From a virus: a stretch of 64,000 nucleotides of DNA. The notes beneath the pieces are model-generated. The model worked only from the letters and a program-made list of their open reading frames with translations. It did no database searches and was not told the origin of the DNA. The stretch is from positions 64,001 through 128,000 of the IMG/VR virus record IMGVR_UViG_3300032309_001546. One strand, 5' to 3'. A program made the translations under genes and the position numbers. Within the stretch, counting starts at the first letter, position 1. Every line of letters begins with the position of its first letter. Positions 23,874-53,981 of this stretch are shown here, piece by piece.

Positions 23874-24077
23874 TAGTAAGTCTCCTAAGTAGATTAGATC
23901 ATTGTTTAGCCAAGAGATAAAAAAGAGCACTGTAAGAGGCCGGCGCAGCCGGCCCATAAATAAAGTACATTGAAGACTATATACTAGTAAAGAGAGATAG
24001 ACAGAGTAATAGGATATACAGAAGAGATTAAGGTCTAGACAGTAAGGAGTATACATGTAGCATGACAAGTCATGTCC

Positions 24078-24425
24078 TGCTATACCCTGCGTTATACCTT
24101 GCTATACCCTGCAAATACCCTGCAGATCCCCTTAAAATACCTTGCTATACCTACCCCGCTCCTACAAACTATACCAATATACCTTGTCCTCGCGTAAGCC
24201 CGTCTTATACCTCTATATACCCCTATATGCCAAAAGCATACAAGGCTATTCTCTGGACTCTTTTTGAACAAGTTCTTATACCCCTATATAGTAAACTTAT
24301 ATACTTGTATGTATACTTGTATACCCCTATGGGGCAAAAGCTGCCTTCATGAAACTCTGGATATCCATCGTAAAACTCTGGACTCTTTTTGGATCTTAAA
24401 AATGACTCTTATCTCTGGACTCTTT
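24078..24425. repeat. Low-complexity short-repeat tract (about 12 x (T/A)ATACC, then 4 x CTCTGGA)
   Basis: ctataccc/ttatacct/aataccc units across 24078-24330; ctctgga(ctcttt) at about 24251, 24355, 24377 and 24413. Confidence 0.8.
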
Positions 24426-24486
24426 ATGGTCTCAGAATCCTGGCCCGGTTGCTTGCATGTATAGCCCTTTATAGCTATATCCTCCT

Positions 24487-24520
24487 TGAAAAGAAAAACC
24501 CTGCTGTTAGGCAGGGTTCT
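24487..24520 (-). terminator. Intrinsic terminator
   Basis: AACCCTGC-ctaaca-GCAGGGTT hairpin followed by a T-rich tract on the minus strand. Confidence 0.8.
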
Positions 24521-24531
24521 CTTCCTTGAGA

Positions 24532-24921
24532 TTAGATCTCTTGGGCATGAGAGTGACGAGTCTCTCGATTAGGACTGTTAGCAGCACGGCGGCGCTTGAT
24601 AGCCTCCAACTTTGCAGCTAGTTCATTTTCCTCACGTTCAGCATTCAAAGCATCCAACTTACGCTGGTACTCACGCTGAGCACGGGTCGTCTTTACTTCC
24701 TCAACAGGCTTACTAGTAGATTGAGATGCTGCGGGTCTAATACCCTCAACCTTCTCAGTTACCATATTACTACCCTTCTTGAGGATAGGACCAAACAACC
24801 CCATGAAGATAGCAGGGATTACTAGAAGAACAGTACCGAAGATACCCCAAAGGGCACCTGCTGCACCTGCTGCTCCTGCTTTGGCAAGAAATGTTCCGCC
24901 TTCTGCGCCTACATCAGCCAT
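24532..24921 (-). CDS. Membrane protein with C-terminal coiled coil
   Basis: Hydrophobic ALWGIFGTVLLVIPAIFMGLFG; GGAGG RBS. Confidence 0.75.
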   Translation of the reverse strand: MADVGAEGGTFLAKAGAAGAAGALWGIFGTVLLVIPAIFMGLFGPILKKGSNMVTEKVEGIRPAASQSTSKPVEEVKTTRAQREYQRKLDALNAEREENELAAKLEAIKRRRAANSPNRETRHSHAQEI

Positions 24922-24923
24922 GA

Positions 24924-25238
24924 TTAGCCCTCCACTCGATAGAATGCACCTGCATTAGGTGCGTGAATCTGAATAGCGCGATAACCTGGATGAAGCGGCT
25001 TACCCGTTGCATCCTTCTTGTGTCGCTTTAGAAATAGAGGAAGGTTCTTGAAGCCCAAGGTGAATCCCTCGGCACCAATCTCCCCATTGCTCCATACCTC
25101 GATATCATCACCACCCATCTTGCAACGAGTAACGACGAAGCTACCAGCCTCTGTACGAACTCGTGCTACAGTAGGAACTGCAGGGTTAGATGAACCAACT
25201 CGAATCACACCACTCGCGGTCAAAACATCACTCATCAT
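24924..25238 (-). CDS. Hypothetical protein
   Basis: Start moved to MMSDVL (GAGG RBS); the longer ORF call overlaps tRNA-Arg. Confidence 0.7.
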   Translation of the reverse strand: MMSDVLTASGVIRVGSSNPAVPTVARVRTEAGSFVVTRCKMGGDDIEVWSNGEIGAEGFTLGFKNLPLFLKRHKKDATGKPLHPGYRAIQIHAPNAGAFYRVEG

Positions 25239-25283
25239 ATACCTCTCATGTTGTACTCTAGAATATAGAGCGTTTGGGGAAAG

Positions 25284-25358
25284 TGTGCCCGACTGGACTT
25301 GAACCAGTGACCTACGGCTTAGAAGGCCGTTGCAACTATCCAACTGTGCTACGGGCAC
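25284..25358 (-). tRNA. tRNA-Arg(UCU)
   Basis: GTGCCCG/CGGGCAC acceptor, ACGGC-CTTCTAA-GCCGT anticodon arm, ACTGG-TTCAAGT-CCAGT T-arm. Confidence 0.95.
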
Positions 25359-25386
25359 GCAGCCTAGGTTTTACCCTAGTAGTTGT

Positions 25387-25881
25387 TTAGAAGCCGTCTC
25401 CATCCTCGAAGACAAAGTTGTCAGCAGGATTTCCGGCAGTCTGACGACGACGCACAGTAGTACGAGCCACAGCACGGACTGCAGGAGTTGCCACAGGACC
25501 AGCCGCCTTCATCTGCTGAGGAGCTGGAGTAGAAGCAGGTGCTGCTTCCTTGGTTGGCCGGCGACCATAGTTGATCTCATTCGCGACAACTTCAGTGATG
25601 TAGCGGGTCTCACCCTTGCTCTCATACTGACGAGTCTTGATTCGACCCTCGATCTCGGCCTCACTACCCTTTGACAGGTACTTGGCAGCATTCTCTGCAG
25701 CCTTACCCCACACAACAACACGATGCCACTCCGGCTCACTGACCGTCTCTCCCGCCTTATTTACGTACTCGTAATTAGTGCAGATAGACAAAGTAGCCCG
25801 GCTACGGCCAGTTTCAGTCGTAGACAACTTGGGATCATCACCAAGGAAACCACGAAGCTCAACACGATTCTTATTACGCAT
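25387..25881 (-). CDS. ssb: Single-stranded DNA-binding protein
   Basis: NRVELRGFLGDDP, EWHRVVVWGKAAE..AKYL.KG....IEGRIKTRQYE, acidic tail EDGDGF. Confidence 0.95.
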   Translation of the reverse strand: MRNKNRVELRGFLGDDPKLSTTETGRSRATLSICTNYEYVNKAGETVSEPEWHRVVVWGKAAENAAKYLSKGSEAEIEGRIKTRQYESKGETRYITEVVANEINYGRRPTKEAAPASTPAPQQMKAAGPVATPAVRAVARTTVRRRQTAGNPADNFVFEDGDGF

Positions 25882-26327
25882 CTCTCATCTCAACTTACCC
25901 ATCCACTGATGGTAATGTTTATTTCAATAAAGCATAATACTCACGATAAAAAGCGAGCGCAGCGAAGCTAATGTATGCCAAGTACAAAGATCTGAAACAT
26001 TGTACTAACAATGCTCAAAAATGTAATGGCAAAGTATAAAACGAAGATCCCACTGATAATGTCCCACAGTGTAGATTTCTTCATGCTAGGAAAAACACTA
26101 TCTCTGAAAGCACATTTGTGAAGAGTACCTTCAGTATCCAAGCTATTCCAATCAACGTAATGATTCTTTGCATTATTACCTCGTAGCTAGAGCCAAGATA
26201 GCAATAGCAGGCCAGATCAGACTAGCCGCAGTATAAGCAAACACAAACCAGACAGGAACCACAACGCTTGCAGTTCCATTGATGTGGCTCATAGTGAAGG
26301 ATACAGTACTCATAAGAATTGACTTCA

Positions 26328-28816: not shown

Positions 28817-28941
28817 TCTCCAGTAAAGAGGTAACATTACCTCTGAGGTTATAAAAAGTGCTCCAGTTTACAGACATGGAGCAAGGTCACGGGACACCAT
28901 TATTTGTGCTCCCCTATACTAGGCTGTTTCTCACCTAGTAA

Positions 28942-29013
28942 TTCAATCATATGGGAATCGAACCCATAACTAGATATCCATAATGGTATATCTAGCGTCA
29001 CCAGACTAATCAA
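28942..29013 (-). ncRNA. tRNA-like element 2 (mini D-arm, elongated anticodon-position stem)
   Basis: TTGATTA-GTC-TGGT-GAC-G-CTAGATAT-ACCATTATGG-ATATCTAG-TT-ATGGG-TTCGATT-CCCAT-A-TGATTGA. Confidence 0.55.
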
Positions 29014-29470
29014 AAGGGTACGGGTCGTCTTATTTGCTAGCGTGCGAACCCCTTCCCAGTCGTTACTAGCGAACTAGTAACCACCCCATGTCTATATAAC
29101 TACTAGGGCAGGGGTCCCTAATAATTAGCCCATGTTTACTCTCATTACTCGCGGCAGGGCTCCGCCAGTAATAAACCCTATGTTTATCTCGTTACTAGAA
29201 GCAAGGGACTAACTAGTAACCACCCCGTGTTCATCTTGTCCATTAGTGGCTGAGGCCCACTAACAGCCAGCCTATCTTTATAGCCAGGTTTGCAACCCTG
29301 ACACCCCTAGGTTTCCATGAACGGTAGGCGCGTTCATGTGTTTCTAGAAGGATTAGAAGGTGACGTCTTGCAGTACGAACAATAGGGTTTACATCCCCTA
29401 CTATTCGCAATGTAACCTGCGTGACGCCGTAAACTTGTGAGCATTTTATAGACCTACTCAGGTCTGAGGA

Positions 29471-29677
29471 TTACACGAAGAAGCGACGAGCCACGTGAAC
29501 GGCCTCAATGAGAGACTCAGAACCAGTGCTGGCATCTTCCTCGTATTCCTCGAAATCGACAAACTCTTCAGGACTGTCCGGGCGATGGCTCCAGTCGATG
29601 CGGTCAATGACCTCATCTTCGCTACCGACAGGAATGTTGAAGCAATCCTCAAAAGACACGAACTCAACAGGGACCAT
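29471..29677 (-). CDS. Small acidic hypothetical protein
   Basis: 68-aa ORF with GGAG RBS, located downstream of a GCA-triloop hairpin. Confidence 0.65.
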   Translation of the reverse strand: MVPVEFVSFEDCFNIPVGSEDEVIDRIDWSHRPDSPEEFVDFEEYEEDASTGSESLIEAVHVARRFFV

Positions 29678-29762
29678 GACAGACTCCGTTTGTTACGAAG
29701 ACACACATAATGTCTTCACCATGAAAGGCGAGCGCAGCGAGCCTAATACTGTGTAGCGGAGT

Positions 29763-29800
29763 AAAAATAAAACCCCAACACATCCTACTGTGCTGGGGTT
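29763..29800 (-). terminator. Intrinsic terminator
   Basis: AACCCCAGCACA...TGTGTTGGGGTT hairpin followed by TTATTTTT on the minus strand. Confidence 0.75.
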
Positions 29801-30364
29801 CTATCTCTCTATCTCGCATTAGGACACTAGCAGGGTCACTACTAGTTACGAGTCTATCAGCCCAAGAGGAGGCTTATCCAAATCGTAATGCGGAATTGGC
29901 AACCGCACCTGTCTACTTACACTAGAACCCGACAGGCCCTTTCTAGTGCTTTGATACCCGACAACTACTGGTGTGGTATCTACTGGAGTCTTGAGCCCAG
30001 TCTACTCTCCTCCTGGGTACGCCTAACTAGGCTCACCATGCTCCCCCGAGGTTGGGAACATGGGTACGGGGCGCGTAACTGCCCCTTCCCAGTTTTTATG
30101 TTAAGCGGACTGGGAACCGCCCCTGTCTGATACATACCAGAAGCCGACAGGCCTCATCTGGTACGAGTAGCGGTAGCTACTATCCGCCATGTGAGGCGAG
30201 CGCAGCGAGCCTAATAGAATCCTATTACCTGGACTCTGTCTGGCCATACTAGTAATGCAACTATTTTTGGCCGACCCTAGTAAAGGGGTTTCCCCCCGAG
30301 TAGGGGGGTTTCGTGGGGGTAAAAAAGTTCCCCTCCCACACTGTAAGTGTGAGAGGGGGGTTCT

Positions 30365-30844
30365 CTAGTCCCAGTCGCCAGCAACAGGGGCGGACTTGCG
30401 GGCGGCAGGCTTGGCGGCGGGCTTGGCAGGCCTCGCGGGAGCCTTGGCAGCGGGCTTGGCGGGTGCCTTGGCGGGCTCCTCGACAACACCGTGACGACGC
30501 ATAAGCGCCTTCTCGGTGGCCAAGAGACGAATCTGGGCCTTGCTGTACACGATGAGCCTGGTGGCGTTGTGCCAGGCCTTGTCATCGCTCTGCCAGGACT
30601 CCGTCTCGAGGCCTGCCCCGTCGATGTGCACGAAATTGTACCCGCTCTCGTCCGCCTTTGCGACGAACCAGTTCACGAGCTCCTGGCCGACCAGACGCAC
30701 CCGCGTCCAGTTGGTGTCCTCCGTCCCGTAGGACGAACTGACCGAGAAGTCCGCGTACTTTCCGCTGGCCCCGATCACGGGCTGCTTGCCCATGTAGCCG
30801 AAGCCCGAGACCTTGAGGGTGAGAAACTTGCGATTCTGTTCCAT
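30365..30844 (-). CDS. Divergent SSB-like OB-fold protein
   Basis: G.MGKQP...ADFSV....EDTNWTRVRLVG...VHIDG..LETESWQS, AKP-rich linker, acidic tip GDWD. Start MEQNRK after GGAG. Confidence 0.7.
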   Translation of the reverse strand: MEQNRKFLTLKVSGFGYMGKQPVIGASGKYADFSVSSSYGTEDTNWTRVRLVGQELVNWFVAKADESGYNFVHIDGAGLETESWQSDDKAWHNATRLIVYSKAQIRLLATEKALMRRHGVVEEPAKAPAKPAAKAPARPAKPAAKPAARKSAPVAGDWD

Positions 30845-30888
30845 TGACGTTCTCCGTGGTAAGTGAGCCAAAGGCGGCTCATCATGAA

Positions 30889-31087
30889 AGGCGAGCGCAG
30901 CGATGCCTGTGCTGCGGCGTTGTTGCTGTTGCCTGCGTAGCGCAGCGGAGCAGGCTGTGTTGCTACCTGCGGAGCGCAGCGAAGCAGGGTAACCACGTAG
31001 CGCAGCGGAGTGGTGTGTCCTGTGGTTCTGATGAGCGTAGCGCAGCGGAGTGAATCAGAGGCGAGGACTCGGCGCAGCCCAGCGGAG
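30889..31087 (+). promoter_or_regulatory. Cluster of about five GC-GCA-GC triloop DNA hairpins
   Basis: AGGC-GA-GCGCAGC-GAT-GCCT; CCTGC-GTA-GCGCAGC-GGA-GCAGG; CCTGC-GGA-GCGCAGC-GAA-GCAGG; ACCAC-GTA-GCGCAGC-GGA-GTGGT; one more near 31036. Confidence 0.65.
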
Positions 31088-31169
31088 TATCTGGACTTTT
31101 TTACGACTATTTGTACTATTTTTGTATTATAGAAAGAATAGCCCATTGCTGGGCTACTCAATCTAATGG

Positions 31170-34100
31170 CTACTTCTTACCCGTGATACGGTTAAGACGT
31201 GCCGCGACACCGGCCTTCTTCTCCGAGGGAGCAGGGGCGGGCTTCTCTTCAGCCTCAACCTCGGCGTCGAAGTCATTGGGATCGATGAAGATAATCTTCA
31301 GGCCCGACTCTTCAGCGTAATCAACCGCATTCTTTGTACCGCCAGTGCTGCCATCCCAGACAGCAATGACGATATCGGCGCAGTCAATCATCTGCATGTT
31401 ACGGCGCTGCATGCAGAACTTGTCTTCGCCATAGGTCTTCTCGCTGACCTGGACGACTTCGCTGGCAACTTCCAGCATGTTCCAGTAGCGCTGCTTGGCT
31501 TCGCGGGGCCACATAGCCTCCTGCTCTACACAGGGGATCATGACCGTGAACGGGATACCCATCTCGTGCGCAATCTCTGCCGCATCCTGGTCAACGCCAA
31601 GGGCACCGCCAGTGATTAGCCAGAGCTTCTCACCGTGCTTGGCAAGACCACGCTCAAGCTGAGCCGCAATCTGTTCACGTACCCAGATGCGCTTCTCCGC
31701 ATTGGGATTGTATCCGCCGATCTTGTCGGGACGGTGACCAGTGAAGGCCACAAAGAAGTACTCCGTCTCTTCGGCTTCAACTTCCTCAGTTGCAGCCGCG
31801 ATCTTAACCTTGAAGGGATCGACATACAGCATACCGGGCTTGTAGTCTGCATACCCTTCGGGGCGGTTGTTGTGGGTAGACTTCGCGCCCGCAGGAGGAT
31901 TCGGCAGAGTGCTGACATCCCGCTTCTGGATGTAAAGCATTACTCCATCAAGTCGGGCTTCGTCATACCAGGCTTGAGGGCCCTTCTGGCGGATCTGCCA
32001 CTCGCTAAGGTCAACGCTATCAGCATCAAACTCGATGTAGGGGCCATGGTCCCCGTACACAATGCGTGCGTACTCGGTTGCAATAATGCTTCCATTCGGG
32101 GTTTGGATTTCCCCATCAAAGCCCTGACCATCCTCACGGAGTCCGAGTTTGGCTTCGACTTCACGCTTGTCGGCTTCGCGATTAGGCAAACCAAGCGTTG
32201 TGGACTTGAAGTCTTCGGACTCTTCGTCTTCGGCAACAGGGCACACAGCGGCCATCGAGGGGCCATTGTCTTCGTATCTGGCTTCGCAGGTCGGGCAGAG
32301 ACCGGCCACGAAATCCCCCTCGACTTTGCAGTCCTCACAGGCATTTGTGCAAATGCGGCAGCCAGCGCCCTCGCACACTTCGCACACAGATGTGGGGATG
32401 GACTCTTCTGCTTCTTCCTCAGTCTTGTTGGCAAGGCGCAGCAGGACGTCAGCGTGGCAGGCTTCGGGTGCACAATGGCAAATCAACGACTTGCCAGTAA
32501 GTTCTCCGAGGCTATCCATGAGATTAACCTGTGCCTTCACCCAAGCCTCGTACTTGGCAATGACTTCCTCACGGTTGCCATCGCGGCCAAGGACGAAGGG
32601 ATTACCCCACTTGCTGGGACGGCCAACGTATACCGCACCGGAAGGAATATCCTTATCTGCCCGGTTGTAGACGGCAGGTGCAGCGTTAGCAACGACCGGA
32701 GCGCTAGCCTCAGTGGCTTCAGACTCTTCGTCTTCGCTGTCCACCCAGCAATCGGTGTAATCGAAGCGGTCGCTGCTCTTGGCCTTCTCGTCTTCCTCAA
32801 AGACCTCGGACTCTTCCTCTTCGTCACCGTACTGGCTAGGGTCGAAGTCCGGGTTCTCTTCACCGAAGTCCGGCTCTTCTGCATCTTCCGGCTCGGGCAT
32901 CTCGTCAGCGTCCTCCGAGATGTCATACTCGTGCGAGGGCTCATCCTCGTAACCCTCCTCGTACGTATCCTCTTCAGGCTCATCACCAGAGAAGACATCG
33001 TTGAGATCCTCTTCGCCTCCACCCTGAGGACCGTTGTCGTCGCCAAGGAAGGTGAGGATCAGGAAGCTGTTCAAGCCCTGAGGCGCGAACCTGGTGCCAA
33101 CAGCCACGGTGCGACCCATGACAGTTTTACCATTCTCGTCCTTGGTCTTGATGTCGGGGTTCCACTCGGTAACCCACTCACGCTCCACAAGCTCTGCCTT
33201 CACCGCAGTACCCGGGAAGATCTCGATCAAGCGACGCAGGAAACCGAATGAGTCAGCAGCTTCAAGCGTGCTCATAGCGTTGAAGCTGTCGAGCTCAGCC
33301 TGCGCTTCTGCGATCTTTGTCTCGCTGGGCTTCTTGGCCTTCTTCAAGTCAGCCAGTGCGTGACGAAGCTCCTCACCCTTGTTCTTCCGACGAAGCTCGA
33401 TCTGACGACCGATTTCGCTGACAGTCGCAAGCTGACCCTCAAAGCCATTGGCCTCTCGACCATCGCTGATGCGCACGCCGGGCAGGCTGAGAAGACCATC
33501 GATCCCCCAGCCAAGCTTCTCGCCGTCACCGCCGAAGCCACCGCAGTTCTTCTCACCACGGATGTAGGCGAGGAGAGCTTCTGCGTCCTGGCGTACCGTC
33601 GGGGTACCACCCTTGCCCAAGTAGAGAGCAAGCTGACGGGCTTCACCGAGGCTGTTATCGTCGAGGCCGTTGATTGCGGCAATGCCATTGCTGGACATCC
33701 AGTCCGTGAGGTATTCCCAGGGACCGCCGACGAAGAACGCAGTGGTAGCGATACCGCCATTCGCCTTAAGGTTGCCATTGGCATCCTCGGTGATGGTGAT
33801 CTCAAGAGCCTGTGGCTTCGCATCCTTGCCGACCTTCTTGGCCTTCTCAGCAGGCTGCAGGTAACGATTGGCAAAGGCAAGCCAGGCCATCTTCACAGCA
33901 GCGTCGCGGTCTTCAGCCTCAAAGTTCTTGAGGATGTACGACTCGATCTGGGAGTCTACGAGTTCAATCGCCGCTCTGATGGGCATCGCCGAGTAGGCCA
34001 GCCAGAGTGCCTTCTTGGCACGCGAGATGTTGCCGCCAGCCAGCATTGCACTGACGACCCTGTAACGACGGTTGCTCTCGTGGCCTGCAGGAGCCATGAT

Positions 34101-37967: not shown

Positions 37968-38259
37968 GAGTTACCTCCTAGTCAACGGGGTCCAGCGCGA
38001 TCTATAGGGAAGCATTCCCTATGACCGACATACCAGTGTCTTGTAACACACTGGAAGATTTCTGGTCCTTTATGGGAAGGACCCTGTTTAAAACCCTGGC
38101 TTTCTGTTCGCTCCGGCATTGACCCATACTACCTTCTTGGAAGATACTGGGGTGCCATTCGAACTATCCGGCCCATTGCGACCACCCCTTAGCAGAGAGC
38201 TGGTCCACATTTTAGCCCATAGTAGTGCAACTATTTAAGTATCGTACAAAAAATACCCT

Positions 38260-39810
38260 TCCTGGGAAGTTCATTAAAACACTTACACACCCAGTGTGCA
38301 GTTTGCTCAACGCATAAATTACTAGTCTGATACTTGTTAACAGACCAGCGATCTATACGCCGTGAACCCATCCAGGGACGCCAGGAGCCTTGCCTCCGTC
38401 CTGGGATTAGCTTCGCACATTAGCATGACATAAAGCGTTTTATCCCTTAAAGGATTCTTGCGCTGCAGTCTTCTTCTCCCACTACATTACTAGACTAGAG
38501 GTTCAATGGGCCTCTATGCTAGGGATCTTGCCGCCGAATTGCGCGAGAAGATATAACCATCCTACTCCTTTTGAGAGCAAGAGCATCTAGTAATTACCTG
38601 ACCTATGTGTAGTTATCTATGGGCAAACAGATCCTAACAAGAACTGAACCTCTGGCAGCGGTTTCTTGTTAGTTTAGGCGTACAAGCGCCTATCCCCTCT
38701 TATACGTGCATGCCTGGCAGTCATCACATACTAATTGGGGGCTGATCTTTTGCTTGCATAGTGATTTGGGTTCTTCTTACCAGTAAGAGCGGCGCTACTC
38801 GCTAAAACCAGTATATAGGGTGTTTATAACCCAATCCAAATGCAAACGGCTCCTCGGTATTTCAACCGAATCACAGCCTTCTACAAGTGTCAAGTGTGGG
38901 AGTCAAAGACACAGCATCCTTCTTGGGACGCTTTGTGTCATACTTCTGTTACGAAGCTAAAGCAACGAATCTCACCATCTCACAGACCAGGTCCTGTCTA
39001 CACAGTAATCAACTGTATAGCGGTTATCTGATCTGTCCTCGTTGATTCCTCGTTATCTCTGCAGAAGGGCTACCGCTTAAAGTAGAAATCCTCCTGGATA
39101 ACTTGGTCCACCGGCCACACCTGCTAGAGTGCGCCTACTCTGTCTCACGACAGTTGGGGAATTATGCAGCATTTACTCTGTAAAAACAGGGAAAGGGTTC
39201 AGCACTTGCCGCCTTGCTTAAGGGCGGGAGTTTGCCTATCACGAGATCTGCTTGTGTCGGTTTTGCGGGGTGTTTTTGTTGAGGTTCCCCTTTTGCCTCC
39301 TTTTTTAAAGTCCGTACTCTCTTTCGAGGACAACAGACTTAGTGCGCGTAATCAACGCTTGGGAAAGTTAAAACCCATATAGTCATCTTTGGTGAGGGAT
39401 GACGCCCTACTGCCGACAGGCAGACCCCTAAAATCTCTATTAGCCATACTTGACATCCACACCACCGACATATTAGGAGCTTTCGCCCCCGGAAGAACTG
39501 TTCCTCCTTGGTGTTTCAGTCTGTGTTGCAGGCCGTACGAGATCTTAGGTTGACAGTTTTTCTGCTACCGACTTTTAGGGATTGCTCCCTCCGCCGGATT
39601 TATGCAGGAACACAGTTTTGGCTGTTAGCCTAGCTGCTTATACTGTCCTCGTGTCCTCTCCGACCATCCACCTTTGGGCATGGCCAGATACTGCACAAGT
39701 CAACGAACCGGTAAGATTCGTTGCTTATTTTTTATGGGGCGTTAACTACGTGCAAAACCTTGCCAACGCTGATCCCCACATATGGTCACTCCATATGTTT
39801 AAGACTCCAC
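38260..39810 (-). ncRNA. Candidate large structured non-coding RNA (about 1.55 kb)
   Basis: No minus-strand ORF of 60 aa or more; bounded by two copies of the cassette element; dense in inverted repeats. Confidence 0.5.
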
Positions 39811-39999
39811 TGTTTAGCCCATAGTATTCTTTTGACGACTATTTTTGGACTATTTGAGTAAAGTAAAACAATTTAACCCATAACTATACAACTCTTTGAG
39901 TATTAGAGAAAAAATAGCCCTTAACGCGGGCTAGACGTGCTTTTCTGTTCCCAAGAAGCAACTCTCGGATGGGCACCACCCCATCAGGCACCTCCCGTT

Positions 40000-40287
40000 T
40001 CAGGGAGACGGGCACTCCCCATCTTTGAGGTGACGCTTGCTGCGCACACAGCCGTATTCGGCCATGCGAGCCTCCACCTTGCGAAGGTGAAGAGTGTCAC
40101 CCCAAACCGAGATGTAGGGTTTATTAGCCAAAGCTCCGAGAAGCCGGCCAATTCCCCACATCACGTCGGAAGCCTCGTCCTTGAGTTCTTCAAGGTTTTT
40201 AACCTCGAAAAGCTCTACTGCCTCTTCGGCAATATGGACGATAGCAACCCGGATGGGAAGCACCTCAAGACATTTACAGAAATGCAT
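40000..40287 (-). CDS. Small MazG-like NTP pyrophosphatase-fold protein
   Basis: HIAEEAVELFE...ELKDEASDV (EExxE...ExxD); AAGGAG RBS. Confidence 0.55.
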   Translation of the reverse strand: MHFCKCLEVLPIRVAIVHIAEEAVELFEVKNLEELKDEASDVMWGIGRLLGALANKPYISVWGDTLHLRKVEARMAEYGCVRSKRHLKDGECPSP

Positions 40288-40445
40288 CTGTAGACTCCTT
40301 GTGGTAATGCTGTATGCAGTACAGCGCTGTGAGTAAAAGGATCTTTACTTCACTGTTTAGCCCAGACTAGTGTACTATTTAAGTATGTTTCAAAGAATGA
40401 CCCATCTTGCGATGGGTCACTCAGTGATGTCTCTCTTCCCTTTCT

Positions 40446-40808
40446 CTACTTCCGCCAGGCCCCAGTACGAGCCTCGACCACAGTCTTGAGGTTGCAGTAG
40501 AGGTTGCCCACCGCATAGCGGCAGGGGGTAGCGGTGGTCAGCCAGTCCTCGTTGGACTGAAGGTCGGGACCCTTGGCCATGGCCAGAGAGTAGCGAGCTT
40601 CCTCTGACAACTGGCATTTGGCCAGAGTCTTGCGGTGCACCGAGACCTTGACGGTGTCGATCTCGCCGCTGAAAGAAGCCGCCACGTGGTTCCAGCCGAT
40701 GGCCTTGAGGGCCTCGACGATCTCCGTCTTGTAGACCGAGACGGGAAGGGTGGGGGGGAAGGAGATAAGGAGCGCGCTATCCGTCACATCATTGATCTTC
40801 TTGCACAT
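40446..40808 (-). CDS. Hypothetical cassette gene
   Basis: Start MCKK after GGAGG; GC3-rich codons; has its own repeat element. Confidence 0.75.
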   Translation of the reverse strand: MCKKINDVTDSALLISFPPTLPVSVYKTEIVEALKAIGWNHVAASFSGEIDTVKVSVHRKTLAKCQLSEEARYSLAMAKGPDLQSNEDWLTTATPCRYAVGNLYCNLKTVVEARTGAWRK

Positions 40809-40953
40809 GGTTTCCTCCATTGGAAAGGCGGTGTGGCGCACCGTGGCAGGGGGTAGAATCTGCCATCTTCTAGTTCATAGTAGGACTATTTAAGTACTAT
40901 AGATTACTTACCCCACCTTGCAGTGGGGCTTTCATCTACCTCAACCTCAGCTC

Positions 40954-41100
40954 TTAGTCCTGCATGCAGCTCCACGAGATGCCGATCCAGGACAGGATCA
41001 GAAGACCCGCGCAGACCGGCTCCATCACGCCAGAGCCAAAGCTCCAGCCGAGGGTGCAGGTTGCGAGGAGGAAGCTGGCGGTAGCGATTGCATTCTTCAT
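40954..41100 (-). CDS. 48-aa two-helix membrane protein (not in the ORF track)
   Basis: MKNAIATASFLLATCTLGWSFGSGVMEPVCAGLLILSWIGISWSCMQD; GGAG RBS; fills one cassette. Confidence 0.7.
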   Translation of the reverse strand: MKNAIATASFLLATCTLGWSFGSGVMEPVCAGLLILSWIGISWSCMQD

Positions 41101-41244
41101 GACATTCTCCAGTTTGGCATCATTCTTTACGAAGTGTAAAGCTATGTATGCCCACAGCCTAGCCCATACTACTATTTGTGTATCCTAGAAAAGATAGCCC
41201 ACCTCCTCAGGGTGAGCCATCCTATCTATCCTCAATCGCTCTAG

Positions 41245-41424
41245 TTACTCGCTGCGGTCAGCAAGCCAACCACCACGACGCACCGACTGGCGGCACGCGA
41301 GGCAGTCACAGCCCCAAAGGGCGTCGGCGATGTCGCTTTCCCAGGCAAACTCCTCTTCCTCCGTGAGGAGGACGATGAGCTCGATCTGAAACAGGGCGAG
41401 GATCTTGACAAGAATCTTGTCCAT
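41245..41424 (-). CDS. Hypothetical cassette gene
   Basis: Start MDKILV after AAGGAG. Confidence 0.7.
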   Translation of the reverse strand: MDKILVKILALFQIELIVLLTEEEEFAWESDIADALWGCDCLACRQSVRRGGWLADRSE

Positions 41425-41549
41425 GGCTAACTCCTTTACGAGTGGGGACGACATTATCCCAAAGCTGGCCAAAGATTAACTCATAGCAGTACAACTATTT
41501 ATGTATTGTCGATTACTTACCCCTTACGGGGCTTTCGTCGGGTTGCTCT

Positions 41550-41810
41550 CTACTTGTCGCCGCATACCGGGAGTGGCGTGCCGTTAGGCACGTCACTCAT
41601 CGGGTGTGGGTGAGTCGCAGAGAAGTCTACAATCCACCACCGCCAACGGGTTTCCCCGCTAAGGCTGCAGTCGATCTCAACAAGCTCGTCCTCAACGCAG
41701 TACCCAGCAACCTTCGGCTCGATCGTACCGGTGGTCGGCACGGGGAGCGTGTTGTTGCTGGAGCAAGCGGTGAGGAGCGAGGCAAGCAACGCGATCTTCA
41801 ACTTATCCAT
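41550..41810 (-). CDS. Putative lipoprotein
   Basis: MDKLKIALLASLLTAC: signal peptide with lipobox LTAC; AAGGAG RBS. Confidence 0.75.
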   Translation of the reverse strand: MDKLKIALLASLLTACSSNNTLPVPTTGTIEPKVAGYCVEDELVEIDCSLSGETRWRWWIVDFSATHPHPMSDVPNGTPLPVCGDK

Positions 41811-41934
41811 GAGATCTCCTTTCGGTTTGGGTGACATTACCCATCTCACCGTTTAGCCCATAGGACTGTTTAAGTATTGTTCAAAGAATAGCCCGCCTAA
41901 GCGAGCCACTCGATGATGCAGTCTACCTCATCCT

Positions 41935-42135
41935 CTAGTCATCGAATCCATACTGCCAAAACAGCGAGGACACGATGGCCATGCCGATCAGCACGATCGT
42001 TGCGAACGTGCCGAGAGCGTTGAACAGGTTCTCGGGGCCGGCGACCCGAAGCCAGTTGTCCATGAGGCAACCAGCGAAGAACATATTCAAGAGGTGAACG
42101 AAGACGCGGACAATGTTCCAGAGAACCTTAACCAT
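41935..42135 (-). CDS. Small two-TM membrane protein
   Basis: Start MVKVLW after AAGGAG; two hydrophobic segments. Confidence 0.75.
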   Translation of the reverse strand: MVKVLWNIVRVFVHLLNMFFAGCLMDNWLRVAGPENLFNALGTFATIVLIGMAIVSSLFWQYGFDD

Positions 42136-42276
42136 GACAGACTCCTTTCTAGTAATATTCCCCAACGAAATGCGGGGCTATATCACCACACTTTAACCCA
42201 CACTACTTGAACTATTTAAGTACAGTAGAAAAGATAGCCCACCTTGCGGTGAGCCAGAGCTTCCCTGATTGTGGAC

Positions 42277-42567
42277 CTAAGGCTTGTTAGCCAAGTGGTC
42301 CGTGATGGCCTTGCTGTTGCCCTGCGAAGGGCAGCACCCAAACTCGCGGAACCAGTAGTCCCGCTTGTTATGCCACTTCTTCTTGGCGGCCTTCTTCCGA
42401 GCCTCGCTTGCCTTTTTACGGGCAGCACGGACAGAGGCGCGAATCTTGCGAGCCTGCTGACGAGTTTCCTCGTCAACAAGCCCGCAGAACAGGATCATGA
42501 AACCCGTTCCTGCACCCCCGAGAAGAATGACGGCGAAAATCAATCGCAACCACATCATCGAGTCCAT
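42277..42567 (-). CDS. Membrane-anchored basic protein
   Basis: N-terminal TM then K/R/A-rich helix; AAGGAGG RBS. Confidence 0.75.
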   Translation of the reverse strand: MDSMMWLRLIFAVILLGGAGTGFMILFCGLVDEETRQQARKIRASVRAARKKASEARKKAAKKKWHNKRDYWFREFGCCPSQGNSKAITDHLANKP

Positions 42568-42725
42568 AACAAACCTCCTTTACGTTAGGTTAGCGCTCTG
42601 CGAATCTGCAGTTTACGCCATGTCATGTCACCTTCTAAGTCATACTATTTAAGTATCTTAGAAAAAATGACCCGTCCAAAGACGGGCCATGTTCCCTTGC
42701 CCACCCTAAGGTGAGCCGTTGCTCT

Positions 42726-42968
42726 TTACCTGAACGGAACGTACAGGTAGAGAGCGCGACGATTGAACCCAGTCGCCTTGTGGATGCTCGCGAAGAGCCG
42801 GTATTCCGGGGGCGAGCTGGTCATGGCGCTGTAAACGCCACGTGCGACCTGGTAGCCGCATCTGCTCCCGCGGTTCTCGAAGGCAGTCCAGGCCGCAGCC
42901 TGAGACAGCCAGTCGAGAAGACGATCCTCCTCTGTCTTGGGGGTCGTCTCGTTGGTGTTGTTGCTCAT
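42726..42968 (-). CDS. Hypothetical cassette gene
   Basis: Start MSNNTN after AAGGAGG. Confidence 0.75.
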   Translation of the reverse strand: MSNNTNETTPKTEEDRLLDWLSQAAAWTAFENRGSRCGYQVARGVYSAMTSSPPEYRLFASIHKATGFNRRALYLYVPFR

Positions 42969-43123
42969 TTTATCCTCCTTGAAGGTTGCAGTGTGGCGCA
43001 CTGGGCAGGGGGTAGAATCTGCCATATATTAACTCATAGCAGAACTCTGTAAGTATTAGAGAAGAAATACCCCACCCTAGCATAAGCCAAAGTGGGGCAA
43101 TCCTCTAGTCCATCAACCAGTTA

Positions 43124-43351
43124 TTACCAGTTGAAATCCTGCTCAACATGATGGAGCACCTCAGTGCCAAACACGCTGAACCGAATCAACAGTCGAAGGC
43201 GCACAGGGGTGCCACCCTCGATGCCGTGGTGCTGCAGCCCAAAGGCCACAAGATTCTTCCACCCACGGCCGGGGTGGGGAGTGGTGTCAATGACAACACC
43301 GTTCACCATGGTCTCAACCTCAAGCAACTGCATCTCGGTCGTGATCATCAT
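43124..43351 (-). CDS. Hypothetical cassette gene
   Basis: Start MMITTE after GGAGG. Confidence 0.75.
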   Translation of the reverse strand: MMITTEMQLLEVETMVNGVVIDTTPHPGRGWKNLVAFGLQHHGIEGGTPVRLRLLIRFSVFGTEVLHHVEQDFNW

Positions 43352-43551
43352 CTTATCCTCCATTGAAAAGGAAGGGAATTTCACCCCACCCGAGAACACT
43401 CTCAGGATTTGAAGTTCATAGAAAATTTGAACCTCCACACTTTAGCTCATACTATTTAAGTATATAAGAAAAGATGGCCCATCCTCTCGGACAGGCCACC
43501 TAAGCTAATACAAGCTGACTCAAGGGCTCAAAGGATCAAGCTCTCAATCAA

Positions 43552-43752
43552 TCAATGCCAGGGATTACGCCCAGCAGGATTGAAGAAGCCGCGACGGGCG
43601 CACTCACGCTTGATCTCCTCGCGCCTCTCTTCCATATCCCGGCAGTAGCTGTTGCCCCAGCCGTACTGGCTGTGGAAACGGACATCATCCGCGAGAAGGT
43701 TGACGGAAATGAGGGAATTGCAGTTCCGAATCTCAATCTTCAACTTATCCAT
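43552..43752 (-). CDS. Hypothetical cassette gene
   Basis: Start MDKLKIE after GGAGG. Confidence 0.75.
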   Translation of the reverse strand: MDKLKIEIRNCNSLISVNLLADDVRFHSQYGWGNSYCRDMEERREEIKRECARRGFFNPAGRNPWH

Positions 43753-43892
43753 GGCAAACCTCCAGGTTGAAATCACTCCTATGAAATATAGGTAGTGTGC
43801 CAAATGTTAACTCATAGTAGTACTCTGTTAGTATGTTAGAAAAGATAGCCCCCGAAGGGGCCAGAGCTTGACCAGAGCGTGAGCTCTAGTTA

Positions 43893-44156
43893 CTACTTGT
43901 ACATCGCCTTAATGAAGGCGTTCTCGATGGCGCGAACCAGCTGCCAGCTCGCGTTCATCTCCTTGTCCAGGTCCCAGGAGGAACCGTCCTTGGCCTCGAT
44001 GTCCTTGAGGCGGGAGATCTCGACCTTGATCGTGCTAAGCGTGTTCCGAAGCTCCTCATGGGAACCCTCTTTGATACCGTTGTTGTCAACAGAATCATTG
44101 AAGGTTGCCCAGCAGGTCTCCGCAATCTCGCTCATCTGGATCATGCTCTTGTTCAT
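43893..44156 (-). CDS. Hypothetical helical cassette gene
   Basis: Start MNKSM after GGAGG. Confidence 0.75.
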   Translation of the reverse strand: MNKSMIQMSEIAETCWATFNDSVDNNGIKEGSHEELRNTLSTIKVEISRLKDIEAKDGSSWDLDKEMNASWQLVRAIENAFIKAMYK

Positions 44157-44313
44157 CTTATCCTCCGTTGGTTGGAAGGGAATTTCACCCTGCCCGAGAC
44201 AATTCCCAGGACTTGAAGCTAGTAAGATTACCAACTCCCACATGTTAACCCATAATACTATTTGAGTATCTTAGAAAAGATAGCTCGCCATTACAGCGAG
44301 CCAGAGCTAATCT

Positions 44314-44670
44314 CTAACGCCAGTTGTGAACAATGCTGAACCAGGGTTGAACCAGGTCAGCCGGAAGCTCCTTGTGGAGCTTATCCGTGATTTCCCTCCA
44401 CTCCAGCATGTGCTGGTAGCGGATAGAGGACGGGATCTCACGGTTGTAGCCGTGGAACCCCTCAAACCAAGCGACGAACACCTGGATATCCTCTGCAGTA
44501 GCCTTGCGAGCCTGATCCCTAATCTCCTCAAGGGAGACCTGGGCAGCAGACTTGACGGCAGGAGCAACGTTGACAGTCTTGACGCTCTCCTTCCCGAAGG
44601 GGAAGAAAAGAGTAACAAGGCCGACGACGAAGCAAAGAGCCATCAAAGCGACAAGAATAACGTTCAACAT
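44314..44670 (-). CDS. Membrane-anchored hypothetical protein
   Basis: N-terminal TM; AGGAGG RBS. Confidence 0.75.
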   Translation of the reverse strand: MLNVILVALMALCFVVGLVTLFFPFGKESVKTVNVAPAVKSAAQVSLEEIRDQARKATAEDIQVFVAWFEGFHGYNREIPSSIRYQHMLEWREITDKLHKELPADLVQPWFSIVHNWR

Positions 44671-44789
44671 GGCAAACCTCCTGGTTGAAATCGTTCCTAT
44701 GAATTATAGGTAACGTGCCACAAGTTAAGTCATACTATTTGTGTATGTAAGAAAGAATGACCCACCTTGCGATGGGTCACTCAATCAGG

Positions 44790-44981
44790 CTACAGAGAGA
44801 AGTATCTCTGTGACCACACGACGGACAGGCTGTTCCACGTACCCCAGGTCAGGGTGCTATGGCGGGTGTGCTTGTCCATGCTGCGGTCGATGACATCAAG
44901 CTCCTTGCGGGAGACTGCCGAAGCAATCTCTTGAAGGAACTTCTTTGCCAGGTACTCATTAGACGCGACATTGATTCTCAT
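44790..44981 (-). CDS. Hypothetical cassette gene
   Basis: 63 aa; GGAG RBS. Confidence 0.7.
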   Translation of the reverse strand: MRINVASNEYLAKKFLQEIASAVSRKELDVIDRSMDKHTRHSTLTWGTWNSLSVVWSQRYFSL

Positions 44982-45084
44982 TGTCTATCTCCATGAAGGG
45001 TGAAATTACCCACATACTATCCCATACTATTTAAGTATAGGAGAAAAAATGACCCATCTCTCGATAGGTCATTGATCCTAGTAC

Positions 45085-45573
45085 CTACTTGATGTAGGTA
45101 TTGATTGACATCAGGCTGCGCATAGCCTGGTGTTGATACTCCGTTTTGGCAACCCACTCAAAGGTCGCCTCAATGGAGCGTTCGAGCCGATTAAGCGGCC
45201 CGCTGAGGAACTGAATCTCACCCTGCGACATAGGCGGGGTAAGGTCCGACTCAACAAACTTAGCAAAGACATCCCACTGGTTGTTAAGCCAGAGAGTGAA
45301 AGATGCGTGAGCCTGTTGAGCCCGGACCAAGCGTTCCATTGCTTGATCCGTCGTGATGTTCTGAGCACAGGCGTTGATGCCAGTCCTCCAGACGCAAGTC
45401 TTGAGGCCCACCGCCTGGATCTCAAGAACATCACGCTCCACTGCAGCGACCTGCTCGTGGAAGTACCGAGAGATCATCCCGGCGGTGGGTGCCTCATTGG
45501 TTGAATAGGTATAAATACCCTCAACCGATGAAGCGTTGACGAGGAGAGCGGACACGATAACGTTGTTCGACAT
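45085..45573 (-). CDS. Hypothetical protein, first gene of the leftward arm
   Basis: Start MSNNV after GGAG. Confidence 0.75.
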   Translation of the reverse strand: MSNNVIVSALLVNASSVEGIYTYSTNEAPTAGMISRYFHEQVAAVERDVLEIQAVGLKTCVWRTGINACAQNITTDQAMERLVRAQQAHASFTLWLNNQWDVFAKFVESDLTPPMSQGEIQFLSGPLNRLERSIEATFEWVAKTEYQHQAMRSLMSINTYIK

Positions 45574-45639
45574 GATTGACTCCAAGACAAAGGGCGGAAT
45601 TGCCCACACACTAGCCCATAACGGTACAGGCGGTCGATC

Positions 45640-46035
45640 CAAAGGGGGTGGGCTAAAACGAATAGGGGGTACACATCTTTACCAGGCGGGCTATATAGAG
45701 TACCCACTCTTTTCCGAAAAAAAATATATTAATTATATATATCCAGATATATAGCCTGTCTTTAGATTGCTCTTTTCCAAAAAAAATATATATAAATATA
45801 TAAGCCTATATAGAGTTCTTTAGGCAAGTCTACGTCCCCTTTTCAGACCTATACCCCCTTTTCCCCTAGCTTTCCCACTAAGTGTTTTCTCAAAATATAT
45901 ATAGAGGTTTTCCCCTATACTATATATAGGACTTTTCCTTATACATATAAGGTCTTTCCTTAAATAATATTTAAGGTTTTTTCCTTTTCCCTATATAGCG
46001 TCCCTTATGGTATCAAGTTAATAAAGTTTAAACTT
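45640..46035. other. Divergence point; AT-rich low-complexity region, candidate genome terminus or packaging site
   Basis: Strand switch and abrupt GC drop; two GGGGGT runs (45643, 45665), duplicated CTCTTTTCC.AAAAAAAATATAT (about 45708, 45770), many TATA/CCCC runs; adjacent to the TerS-like gene. Confidence 0.55.
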
Positions 46036-46038
46036 AGT

Positions 46039-53979: not shown

Positions 53980-53981
53980 TT

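Follow-up and report, generated by a model that had tools for sequence, protein, structure and literature searches.

Organization of the module

We looked at a window of 64,000 nucleotides, the whole stretch of DNA analysed here, to which all positions refer. Between 24.1 and 45.6 kb it holds a candidate transcription module on the minus strand, which makes up about 21 kb of the 146-kb genome of an uncultured phage. The minus strand carries every plausible gene between 24.5 and 45.6 kb, and the GC content of the module is 0.45-0.63 as compared with about 0.39 for the genome. Strand and GC count thus bear out the contiguous, one-directional, GC-elevated block of about 21 kb described in an earlier note on this DNA, and all the elements named in that note were found, each of them non-random. 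At its end the module is bordered by a repeat-rich spacer (24069..24500, no strand assigned) with the units TATAGGGGTATA and AAAAAGAGTCCAGAG, which were also found in the related phage L017 (25437-25850). On the other side, a low-complexity spacer rich in CTATATA, recognised by reading the sequence (45643..46038, no strand assigned) and 80-90% identical in L003 and L017, lies between the module and a divergent late/structural arm. This arm, which adjoins the polymerase gene, holds other giant proteins and the terminase.

A giant gene with a predicted two-barrel RNA polymerase core

The RNAP-like ORF of the module, P0001 (31170..37967, minus strand), encodes a giant polyprotein of 2265 aa made of N-terminal hydrophobic helices, an A/P/K-rich stretch, an RNAP core, an acidic linker, a DUF4326 domain, Cys clusters and a YpsA-SLOG domain. 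The two C-terminal domains were recognised by Pfam (DUF4326 at 32439-32654, minus strand, E 5.9e-24; YpsA SLOG at 31272-31751, minus strand, E 8.6e-17, with PDB 2nx2, YpsA), and homologues are fused to DUF4326, SLOG, HIRAN, trypsin-like and phosphoesterase domains. The core (aa 550-1290; 34098..36320, minus strand) gave neither a Pfam match nor a PDB match by profile. For this part, we used an AF2 model (pLDDT 85, pTM 0.83), and searches of the modelled core with Foldseek and VIA returned only two-barrel RNAPs at their top. The best structural matches were QDE-1 (E 2e-6) and RDR2, with 417-476 residues aligned over both barrels; P23-45-type gp64/gp62, crAss phi14:2 gp66 and gp96 were also matched. 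In the model, two DPBB domains make one catalytic cleft. Alignment of 23 sequences, with identity down to about 20%, showed that RxP and GxDxDD are invariant in all of them, together with several other motifs. The three Asp (D944/D946/D947; 35127-35138, minus strand) come after the invariant RxP, and their spacing is D-x-D-D in 23/23 sequences, not DxDxD (NADFDGD-type). In the structure match, the D-x-D-D barrel aligns to the Rpb1/RPC1 region, which we take to hold the active-site barrel. In the first barrel, the sequence alignment shows conservation of at least 90% for R650 and K659-G660 (R..T..GL.KG....LPD..FP), which may correspond to the catalytic Lys/Arg of the beta-like barrel. The invariance of the three acidic residues, of RxP and of the other motifs at such low identity indicates strong selection on an active site. 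By its predicted fold, the P0001 core is a single-chain RNA polymerase of the two-barrel type that represents a new family, and the earlier description of this gene as RNAP-like holds at the fold level. It is the one two-barrel RNAP copy and the sole polymerase found in the genome. No multisubunit RNAP was found there, and a PF00940 search for a T7-like RNAP gave 0 matches in the genome but also in 0/14 control genomes, so it does not show that such an enzyme is absent.

Class-1 sites and the cassette array

Two repeated signals were detected in the module. A class-1 site consists of box 1, ATACTTAAATAGT, and box 2, TATGGGCTAAAnnGTGG, separated by -1, 2, 5, 7-8 or about 25 nt. There are 17 such sites, mostly located directly after a terminator-like hairpin, and motif scan and PWM place 16 of them at 38221..45038 on the minus strand. 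The 13-mer of box 1, which is palindromic (ACT-TAAAT-AGT), has 19 matches at up to two mismatches against 2.5 expected; 15 of the 19 are on the minus strand at 38230-45038 and another, degenerate, is at 31115, and none occurs elsewhere in the 146-kb genome at up to one mismatch. The 17 sites given by the box 2 PWM are all found at 38221-45620 on the minus strand, and 12 of these copies contain a TAnnnT hexamer. One site is a box-2-only core, TATGGGCTAGTGTGTGGG (45603..45620, minus strand; PWM score 23.6), upstream of the first gene of the minus-strand arm (ATG at 45572); the counterpart position in L017 lies upstream of the L017 RNAP gene.

Class-1 sites cut the distal half of the module into small-gene cassettes, a 1.55-kb RNA and the polymerase gene, which has one site upstream of it. 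The sequence layout shows an array of about 14 small-gene cassettes (40000..45572, minus strand) with the usual order of terminator hairpin and T-run, box 1, box 2, leader, AGGAG and ATG, a layout also found in L002, L003, L005 and L019. Read by eye, the translations of several of these small, putatively early proteins look hydrophobic or lipoprotein-like. The repeated element previously noticed upstream of the distal small genes and of the RNAP gene corresponds to these 17 sites, confined to the module. Class 1 lacks the -35 and -10 hexamers 16-18 nt apart of a sigma-70 promoter, and the module shows no enrichment of sigma-70-type sites (15 against 11.9 expected). Having about 29 conserved positions but no -35 among them, class 1 resembles a phage-polymerase promoter more than a host promoter.

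Class-2 hairpin elements

The second class is a putative GCGCAGC mini-hairpin on the template strand, found only at 25.9-31.1 kb. Its sequence CGCTGCGCT is present eight times in 146 kb, always on the minus strand (25964-31047). Four copies carry a fixed downstream tail of the TTTCATGGTGA type and lie upstream of transcription units, namely the SSB-like gene (element at 30882..30911), a 430-nt ORF-free RNA (30187..30216), a 68-aa ORF at 29471-29677 (29719..29748) and SSB gene 1 (25944..25973), all on the minus strand. The other four exact copies and one degenerate copy form a five-unit tandem array without downstream tail (30936-31089); motif scan and folding place it after a degenerate box 1 (31115-31127), the whole spanning 30936..31127 on the minus strand. 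On the plus strand, the tandem hairpins have varied outer stems around a fixed GNA-GC-GNA-GC-GNA core, and the array is kept in L002, L003 and L005 with changes at the N positions only. The plus, or template, strand of class 2 reads stem/GA/GC-GCA-GC/GA/stem, that is, a GNA-triloop mini-hairpin. GCGCAGC is found with at least five different complementary outer stems, and the loop is GCA or GTA in relatives, differing at its middle base. The element therefore has the GC-rich heptamer, 3-nt loop and variable inverted repeats of the N4 type. Nearest-neighbour DNA folding gave -1 to -7.7 kcal/mol, not better than shuffles, with the plus-strand hairpin favoured by 0.3-1.6 kcal/mol only. The separate hairpin element proposed upstream of the proximal genes was thus recovered as eight minus-strand copies in the module only, and genome-wide scans showed the two motif classes to be genuine and restricted to the module.

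SSB genes and ORF-free structured RNAs

Of the two SSB-like genes reported before, the first (25387..25881, minus strand, 164 aa) is a bona fide SSB gene (PF00436, E 1.8e-27; phrog_44, E 8e-37), whose product has the OB-fold domain and the acidic tip at its C-terminus. The second (30365..30844, minus strand, 159 aa) is SSB-like by architecture only, with no Pfam or PHROG match: an OB-like part of about 115 aa (b1-b3/helix/b4-b5; model pLDDT 49), an A/P/K linker and an acidic C-terminal tip. Its L017 homologue ends in DDGMPF.

Three minus-strand regions free of ORFs had been described as structured, and compensatory pairs or folding z-scores confirmed this for all of them. The largest, of about 1.55 kb (38255..39810), has two tandem class-1 sites upstream, a terminator at its end and no Rfam match. 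In four relatives, the mean column identity is 93% over the whole alignment and about 95% over the RNA body, and the consensus fold has 528 pairs. It shows 20 compensatory pairs, where slid controls gave 1-5, and the proportion of broken cells is 1%. Region B (29765..30195; MFE -179 kcal/mol, z -6.5) has a terminator-like hairpin at its end and is missing from L003 and L005. Region C (28840..29470; folding z -7.8) contains repeated units and a tRNA-like T-arm, and is partly conserved as blocks 72-96% identical in L002, L003, L017 and L019.

Promoter-like elements and polymerase alleles in related phages

Co-variation of the motifs with the polymerase was compared across three lineages. RNAP alleles of related phages are just 30-34% identical, against 70-94% nucleotide identity in the proximal module. 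L017 shares 31% identity in the RNAP and 70-82% nucleotide identity in the proximal module. L019 has a short RNAP of 1081 aa (34% identity; proximal module, 70-94% nucleotide identity), and L018 carries a third RNAP allele with class 1 upstream. Giant alleles (2265-3963 aa) have at least four hydrophobic segments whereas the short allele has none.

Upstream of the same genes, three arrangements were observed: the GCGCAGC hairpin here, a hairpin of the same design but different sequence in L017, and none in L019, as seen at the 68-aa ORF orthologue. The L017 element, GGCC-TCCTTCGTC-GGCC, has 11 intergenic copies; the SSB2-like gene, the 68-aa ORF and SSB1 all have it upstream. Its template strand reads stem/GA/C-GAA-G/GA/stem, and the hairpins are followed by (C/T)ATGGGCA. 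It fills the gap of about 60 nt between terminator and start codon, indicating that the promoter must lie there, and in at least six cassettes with unrelated genes it is the sole conserved sequence between the terminator and the ribosome site. In L019, there is no GCTGCGC at all, and no clear promoter class was found for its polymerase, just a two-copy CGCAAGAAT. L019 holds at least 11 class-1 sites nearly as ours, one of them upstream of the RNAP. Class 1 is unchanged in our lineage, L019/L016 and L018; L017 has a box-2-like element only. Accordingly, the RNAP gene follows a class-1 element in three lineages, ours included, whereas in L017 it follows the box-2-like element. Hairpin classes were seen only with giant, helix-bearing alleles. 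No contig was found to have the motif arrays without the polymerase, a co-occurrence biased by the fact that the loci were picked through the polymerase. Altogether, class 1 stays constant while the proximal element changes or disappears with the allele, which ties the polymerase to the hairpin class and is in line with a cascade.

A possible transcription cascade and its alternatives

Part of the gene expression of this phage is probably under its own control, in an unusual manner. We tentatively favour, at close to an even chance, that the block is a phage-autonomous transcription module around a new single-chain two-barrel RNAP family, working as a cascade. Class-1 promoters would be read by a polymerase indifferent to the phage allele. 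Since this reader appears unchanged when the phage allele changes, it would most simply be host RNAP. Help may come from a dimeric factor bound to the palindrome of box 1, and the TAnnnT hexamer within box 2 may act as a -10. Class-1 reading would give the small early proteins, the large RNA and the polymerase, which would then recognise the proximal hairpin elements and turn on the SSB and neighbouring genes. By analogy with N4, SSB assistance and hairpin extrusion could take part. The fold, the confinement of the motifs, the position of the RNAP gene behind class 1 and the hairpin-allele link all speak for the cascade that the earlier note had proposed, although its order faces a serious rival in a virion-delivered polymerase. 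Points against the cascade are the phage-like promoter character of class 1, the modest folding energies of the hairpins, the similar end of the two classes, and the lack of a clear promoter class for the L019 polymerase.

The polymerase could be packaged and injected, as in N4, crAss-like phages and P23-45, with its N-terminal helices fixing it in the membrane, and could be active from the first moment. It would then read class 1, making the array immediate-early and the polymerase gene a source for progeny virions, or it would read the hairpins first as in N4. The hydrophobic helices and effector-type domains fit injection from the virion, and events would then follow a different order. The giant size of the helix-bearing alleles, to which the hairpin classes are restricted, agrees with this, as do the adjoining arm with its giant proteins and terminase, the virion enzymes gp66 and gp96 among the structural neighbours, and the high information content of class 1 without a -35. 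The fused domains of the homologues also recall the polyvalent-protein design (PMC5512222). However, unlike in N4, the gene is surrounded by early-looking cassettes and shares their promoter type. Class 1 shows no co-variation with the polymerase, and it is retained in L019 and L018, whose short alleles are devoid of a packaging/injection-type extension. We consider virion delivery rather unlikely, if well worth keeping in mind.

A single phage polymerase reading both classes is less probable. Both classes end in a similar yATGG...GTGR near the start (CTAAAnnGTGG in class 1, the TTTCATGGTGA tail in class 2), and ATGGGCA comes after the hairpins of L017, so one enzyme could use this shared core as the actual promoter, with box 1 and the hairpin as alternative upstream modules for strength or timing. 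Host read-through or the virion would then supply the first molecules. The presence of box 2 alone at the first gene of the arm and the terminators, alike in both halves of the module, are consistent with this. Yet the likeness between classes 1 and 2 is short and was aligned by eye, and enzymes of 30% identity would have to hold a 29-nt class-1 specificity while switching hairpin specificity.

Equally doubtful is that the hairpins are RNA or replication signals, such as SSB autoregulatory operators, single-strand priming sites or an origin by the SSB genes, and that the two-barrel enzyme, which in fold comes nearest to the RNAi polymerases QDE-1 and RDR2, makes primers or copies RNA. Elements do lie upstream of both SSB-type genes, the five-copy array has no tail, the outer stems co-vary in a way that fits RNA as well as DNA, and the repeat-rich spacers look origin-like. 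But an RNA and an ORF other than SSB also have the element upstream, the conservation of the L017 element across cassettes argues for a promoter, and the purine-rich GA/GNA design belongs to the template strand; an RNA version would have U-C mismatches. Finally, it is highly improbable that the core is catalytically dead or has another job and that host RNAP with phage factors reads both classes: the non-canonical DxDD replaces the universal DxDxD loop and the phage encodes a sigma factor (one, of the sigma-70 family), but the active-site-like motifs are invariant and the sigma gene lies far outside the module.

Comparison with known systems

Single-chain two-barrel RNAPs of phages include P23-45 gp64 (non-virion) and gp96 (a virion enzyme fused to the tape measure), gp66 of crAss-like phi14:2 and SPbeta YonO. 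No relationship to these was seen at the sequence level, either by Pfam or by PDB profile. Their metal loop is DxDxD and that of the present enzyme DxDD, and the latter is fused to hydrophobic helices, DUF4326 and SLOG, with a hairpin as promoter-like element. Two promoter classes have a precedent in P23-45, where the other class controls one polymerase gene (PMC10770324). QDE-1 and RDR2, the closest structures over both barrels, are eukaryotic, RNA-templated and DxDGD enzymes, unlike a phage module with DNA promoter-like signals. N4 promoters have a GC-rich heptamer, flanking inverted repeats, a 3-nt loop and a sheared G:A pair in a template-strand hairpin (PMC4496689). Class 2 is alike in its heptamer with a GNA-type 3-nt loop, its variable inverted repeats, its strand and its position upstream of genes, and the module shares with N4 a giant polymerase and itself holds SSB genes, where N4 uses the SSB of E. 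coli (PMC4496689). The N4 virion RNAP is a T7-like single-subunit enzyme whereas the fold here is two-barrel, and our hairpins have an inner GA/GA or GNA/GNA layer. N4-type promoters have the centre of their loop at -11 relative to the start site, depend on SSB for activation and extrude their hairpin through supercoiling. The favoured cascade follows the logic of the T7 type, from host RNAP to phage RNAP to private promoters, and, as in T7, T3 and SP6, the private promoter changes with the polymerase allele. It differs in the polymerase family, in early promoters that are not canonical sigma-70 sites, and in that nearly each early gene is its own terminated cassette.

Genome Context of the Module

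The source record is a single IMG/VR virus of 145,919 bp with a completeness estimate of 84%, and the window covers its bases 64001-128000. Genes run on the minus strand until ~45.6 kb and on the plus strand from 46.0 kb, where the arm opens with giant proteins, of which one carries an SNase domain, and continues with terminase and portal; distant relatives of the terminase were found in Moorella phage MTATph1 and Bacillus phage 0305phi8-36. The three giant proteins (47393-57170(+); 1273 aa with the SNase domain, 921 aa and 1062 aa) lie immediately 5' of the terminase, and are also beside the polymerase arm in a close relative (L002) and in a relative with a distant polymerase allele (L017). 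SNase was their sole family match, and they are candidates for ejected or internal virion proteins. GC content was 0.45-0.63 over 24-45.6 kb, with its maximum over the giant gene, against ~0.39 for the whole genome, and this elevation was common to all compared modules, those of the relatives included.

Elsewhere in the window, a short adenylosuccinate-synthetase homologue (353 aa, 1289-2350(-), PF00709, E 4e-77) has a PurZ-like size, PurZ being known from phages that replace A with 2-aminoadenine. Its neighbours are a spore-photoproduct-lyase-like radical SAM gene (2359-3417), a UvdE endonuclease (5898-7067) and an ATP ligase (153-1319). In the closing spacer of the module (24069-24500), AAAAAGAGTCCAGAG and TATAGGGGTATA are each present three times. 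Both recur at the equivalent place in L017 (25437-25850) and may mark an origin or a site for a regulator. The words GAGTCCAG and AAAGTCCAG, akin to these, stand beside promoter-like sites at 30236 and 31101. The spacers bracketing the module were rejected as terminal repeats, having just short CTATATA words in common.

The Giant Protein Has a Predicted Two-Barrel Polymerase Core

The giant gene (31170-37967, minus strand) encodes 2265 aa, in which Pfam found just DUF4326 (aa 1772-1843) and a YpsA-type SLOG domain (aa 2073-2232). Neither Pfam nor PHROGs gave an RNAP family, and PDB sequence and profile searches with the protein and its family returned YpsA and chance matches, with no polymerase. 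An exhaustive HMMER search gave 20 homologue clusters of 760 to 3499 aa, one at 90% identity and the others at ~23-35% over aa 565-1270. In the 11 clusters scanned with Pfam, no family was detected in the shared part, and some carried HIRAN, trypsin-like or phosphoesterase domains. Two motifs were invariant in the alignment, R890-x-P892 and G942-x-D944-x-D946-D947, and KY, DG, R..T..GL.KG....LPD..FP, NPF..G..ANAQ and LSD.VDA..KG were nearly so.

To look at the fold, the structure of aa 550-1290 was predicted from 23 sequences (pLDDT 85.2, pTM 0.83) and searched with Foldseek. The top 25 matches were all two-barrel RNA polymerases (25/25), among them QDE-1 (E 2e-6), RDR2, P23-45-type gp64/gp62, crAss phi14:2 gp66 and P23-45 gp96. 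The earlier note had proposed an RNAP-like gene at this place, and the core model together with these matches bears it out at the level of the fold. Taken on the predicted model, the core is a new sequence family with a two-barrel fold and a non-canonical metal loop (DxDD); the family escapes detection by Pfam and PDB sequence searches, and the superfamily's most conserved motif is altered in it. Giant forms have strong hydrophobic N-terminal segments (here aa 1-31, 33-56, 90-112 and 349-382), which were absent from the short alleles.

The polymerase is single-copy, no second copy being found in the genome, and a genome search for Rpb1/Rpb2 domains of multisubunit RNAP was negative. A T7-like RNAP gave no match in the genome either, which is weak evidence because the search was silent in control genomes too. 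Outside the window, one sigma-70-family gene (368 aa, Sigma70_r2 E 6e-21, genome 32,881-33,987(-), or 1003-2109 of L001, the locus on the source genome) adjoins a DnaG-type primase and is the only such gene found in the genome; its presence implies that host core RNAP, equipped with the phage sigma, transcribes part of the genome. Long plus-strand frames opposite the giant gene (33360-36581, 36694-38007 and 31635-33251; 1073, 437 and 538 aa) were rejected as genes, since they are by-products of the high GC there. In the public record of L017, such opposite-strand frames are annotated as genes, which shortens the true 3963-aa ORF.

Class-1 Elements in the Distal Half

The box 1 13-mer had 19 matches at up to 2 mismatches where 2.5 were expected, 15 of them on the minus strand between 38.2 and 45.0 kb; at up to 1 mismatch it occurs nowhere else in the genome. 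It is a palindrome, ACT-TAAAT-AGT, with a short form ATACT/AGTAT (38230-45038(-)). Most class-1 copies are preceded by a GC-rich hairpin with a T-run, and box 1 is followed by box 2 (TATGGGCTAAAnnGTGG) after a gap of -1, 2, 5, 7-8 or ~25 nt, then by a leader, AGGAG and ATG. The distance between the boxes shifts in ~3-nt steps. With a box 2 PWM, 17 minus-strand sites scored at least 15 bits, all within 38221-45620; other hits genome-wide reached at most 14.2 bits, the one exception being a lone site on the plus strand, beyond the window, at 15.9 bits. Class-1 elements stand before small genes, in tandem before a 1.55-kb ORF-free stretch, and before the polymerase gene (38221-38242, minus strand), and the first gene of the arm has box 2 alone upstream, without box 1. 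A TAnnnT hexamer lies inside box 2 in 12/17 copies, no conserved -35 was found among class-1 sites, and sigma-70 consensus sites were not enriched in the module, nor in a control region. Class 1 resembles a promoter private to the phage more than one of the host. Box 1 has the look of a binding site for a dimeric protein, not of a rigid promoter part. Neither an NtcA-type nor a MotA-type reading of box 1 was kept, as both are at odds with its spacing and orientation. Two adjacent cassettes (43124-44243(-)) have a common leader, CCTGRGARTGTTCTCGGG...GGTGAAATTCC, upstream of their start codons, which may be an RNA element used by both or the trace of a recent duplication.

Class-2 Hairpins, SSB-Type Genes and Structured Regions in the Module

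In the proximal half, CGCTGCGCT occurs in eight copies, the only ones in the genome, every one on the minus strand at 25964-31047. Four class-2 copies consist of TTAGGCTCGCTGCGCTCGCC then TTTCATGGTGA and lie 40-60 nt upstream of SSB-like gene 2, region B, a 68-aa ORF and SSB gene 1; five further copies, one degenerate, are arrayed in tandem in the interval from the polymerase terminator to the nearest tailed copy, that of SSB-like gene 2. Read on the plus (template) strand, the element is outer stem, GA or GNA, GC-GCA-GC, GA or GNA, outer stem. The outer stems vary among copies and retain complementarity, and substitutions in relatives fall at the N of the GNA units, including a change of the loop from GCA to GTA. 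Nearest-neighbour DNA folding, a model that gives no credit to sheared G:A pairs, returned the expected shape at -1 to -7.7 kcal/mol, no better than shuffles, with a plus-strand advantage of just 0.3-1.6 kcal/mol. The hairpins could also have a role in RNA or in replication.

SSB gene 1 (25387-25881) encodes a standard SSB. The product of the second gene (30365-30844) had no family match; it has an SSB-like layout, its L017 homologue ends in DDGMPF, and its predicted structure was too uncertain to serve as a structure query.

Region A (38255-39810, 1.55 kb, ORF-free) shows ~95% identity across four lineages, between which the polymerase cores are 76-90% identical. Its consensus fold of 528 pairs has 1% broken cells and compensatory changes at 20 pairs, where slid controls gave 1-5, a count to be read knowing that the fold was chosen with covariation in mind. 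Its size would place it with the largest structured non-coding RNAs that phages encode. Region B (29765-30195, folding z -6.5) is an extra cassette, absent from the close relatives L003 and L005, and region C (28840-29470, folding z -7.8) has conserved blocks, including a tRNA-like T-arm. Rfam, at gathering thresholds and at E<=1, returned tRNAs and sub-threshold noise only, and no family for regions A, B or C. Two tRNA-like pieces (28090-28170(-) and 28890-28990(-)) have GGTTCGAATCC / GGTTCGATTCC T-arms and acceptor-like ends; ARAGORN and Rfam made no call on them, and one is similar to the 3' half of the nearby tRNA-Arg (25283-25358).

The Proximal Element Changes with the Polymerase Allele

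The earlier note had tied the polymerase to both motif classes. Close relatives with polymerases 77-90% identical (L002, L003/L004 and L005) keep them together and retain the entire layout, and an IMG/VR motif scan gave nine contigs with one chance match each and no arrays. Protein and core-alignment searches of IMG/VR found no family member besides the source record, a metagenome scan for relatives gave one locus, and 185,579 species genomes held no member and therefore no host clue.

In L017, which comes from a 149-kb contig, the giant gene encodes 3963 aa, and its core shares 31% identity with that of the source phage. The gene opens the arm and is preceded by a box-2-like sequence, the homologue of the source phage's first promoter. 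The proximal module has 70-82% DNA identity to the source phage's. Here a different hairpin, GGCC-TCCTTCGTC-GGCC, occurs in 11 intergenic copies with co-varying stems upstream of genes, among them the SSB2-like gene, the 68-aa ORF and SSB1. Its template-strand reading is stem/GA/C-GAA-G/GA/stem, the class-2 design in other letters, and in several cassettes it is the sole conserved sequence from terminator to ribosome site. After the polymerase gene, 1.25 kb of L017 (18622-19870) holds four short terminator-plus-hairpin units ~320 nt apart and tiny ORFs only.

In L019 and L016, the polymerase allele is 1081 aa, 34% identical, without hydrophobic or effector domains, next to a proximal module 70-94% identical to the source phage's. 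GCTGCGC is absent throughout L019, where CGCAAGAAT is common to the upstream regions of the 68-aa ORF and SSB1, a tentative proximal element because only two copies exist. At least 11 class-1 sites near-identical to the source phage's stand in L019 before unrelated small genes, the polymerase and the SSB2-like gene, and a third, short allele (in L018) is likewise behind class-1 sites. Judged from these sequences, a switch of polymerase allele goes with a switch of the element upstream of the orthologous proximal genes, and class 1 is constant.

Interpretation and Comparison with Known Systems

This pattern would arise if the polymerase read the proximal element and something constant read class 1, and P23-45 is a precedent that agrees with it (PMC10770324). 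We consider it probable that the module is transcribed at least partly by its own polymerase from private signals. The earlier note went further, with class 1 firing first to produce the polymerase that then reads the hairpins. The tracking of allele by element fits this part, with three lineages chosen through the polymerase, which is not proof; the phage-private look of class 1 and a short downstream stretch common to both classes weigh against it, and we put the full cascade slightly below an even chance. The enzyme's giant, helix-bearing, multi-effector build suggests virion injection of the polymerase, which would change the order of events. Different polymerases and upstream elements before the same genes make these natural allele swaps a ready system for promoter specificity.

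The class-2 design agrees with what has been published on the early promoters of N4, in which a GC-rich heptamer with inverted-repeat flanks, a 3-nt loop and a sheared G:A pair forms a template-strand hairpin that SSB keeps open (PMC4496689). The N4 virion polymerase is T7-like, whereas the polymerase here is predicted to have the unrelated two-barrel fold. Our most complete reading is tentative, and we lean against it as a whole: a new two-barrel RNAP family with a DxDD metal site, often a membrane-anchored giant polyprotein, would read template-strand GNA mini-hairpin promoters, convergent with N4's polymerase, in a GC-elevated module also encoding a 1.55-kb structured RNA. If the hairpin reading is true, structured-DNA promoters would have arisen twice, with unrelated polymerase folds, and the enzyme with its short private promoters and terminators could serve as an orthogonal expression tool. 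Phage-encoded two-barrel polymerases are few, and each shifted ideas on RNA polymerase evolution. Such polymerases and dual-promoter programmes are known already; new are the sequence family with its DxDD loop, the fusion architecture of the polymerase, the natural allele/element swaps and the pairing of a putative N4-like structured-DNA element with a two-barrel enzyme.
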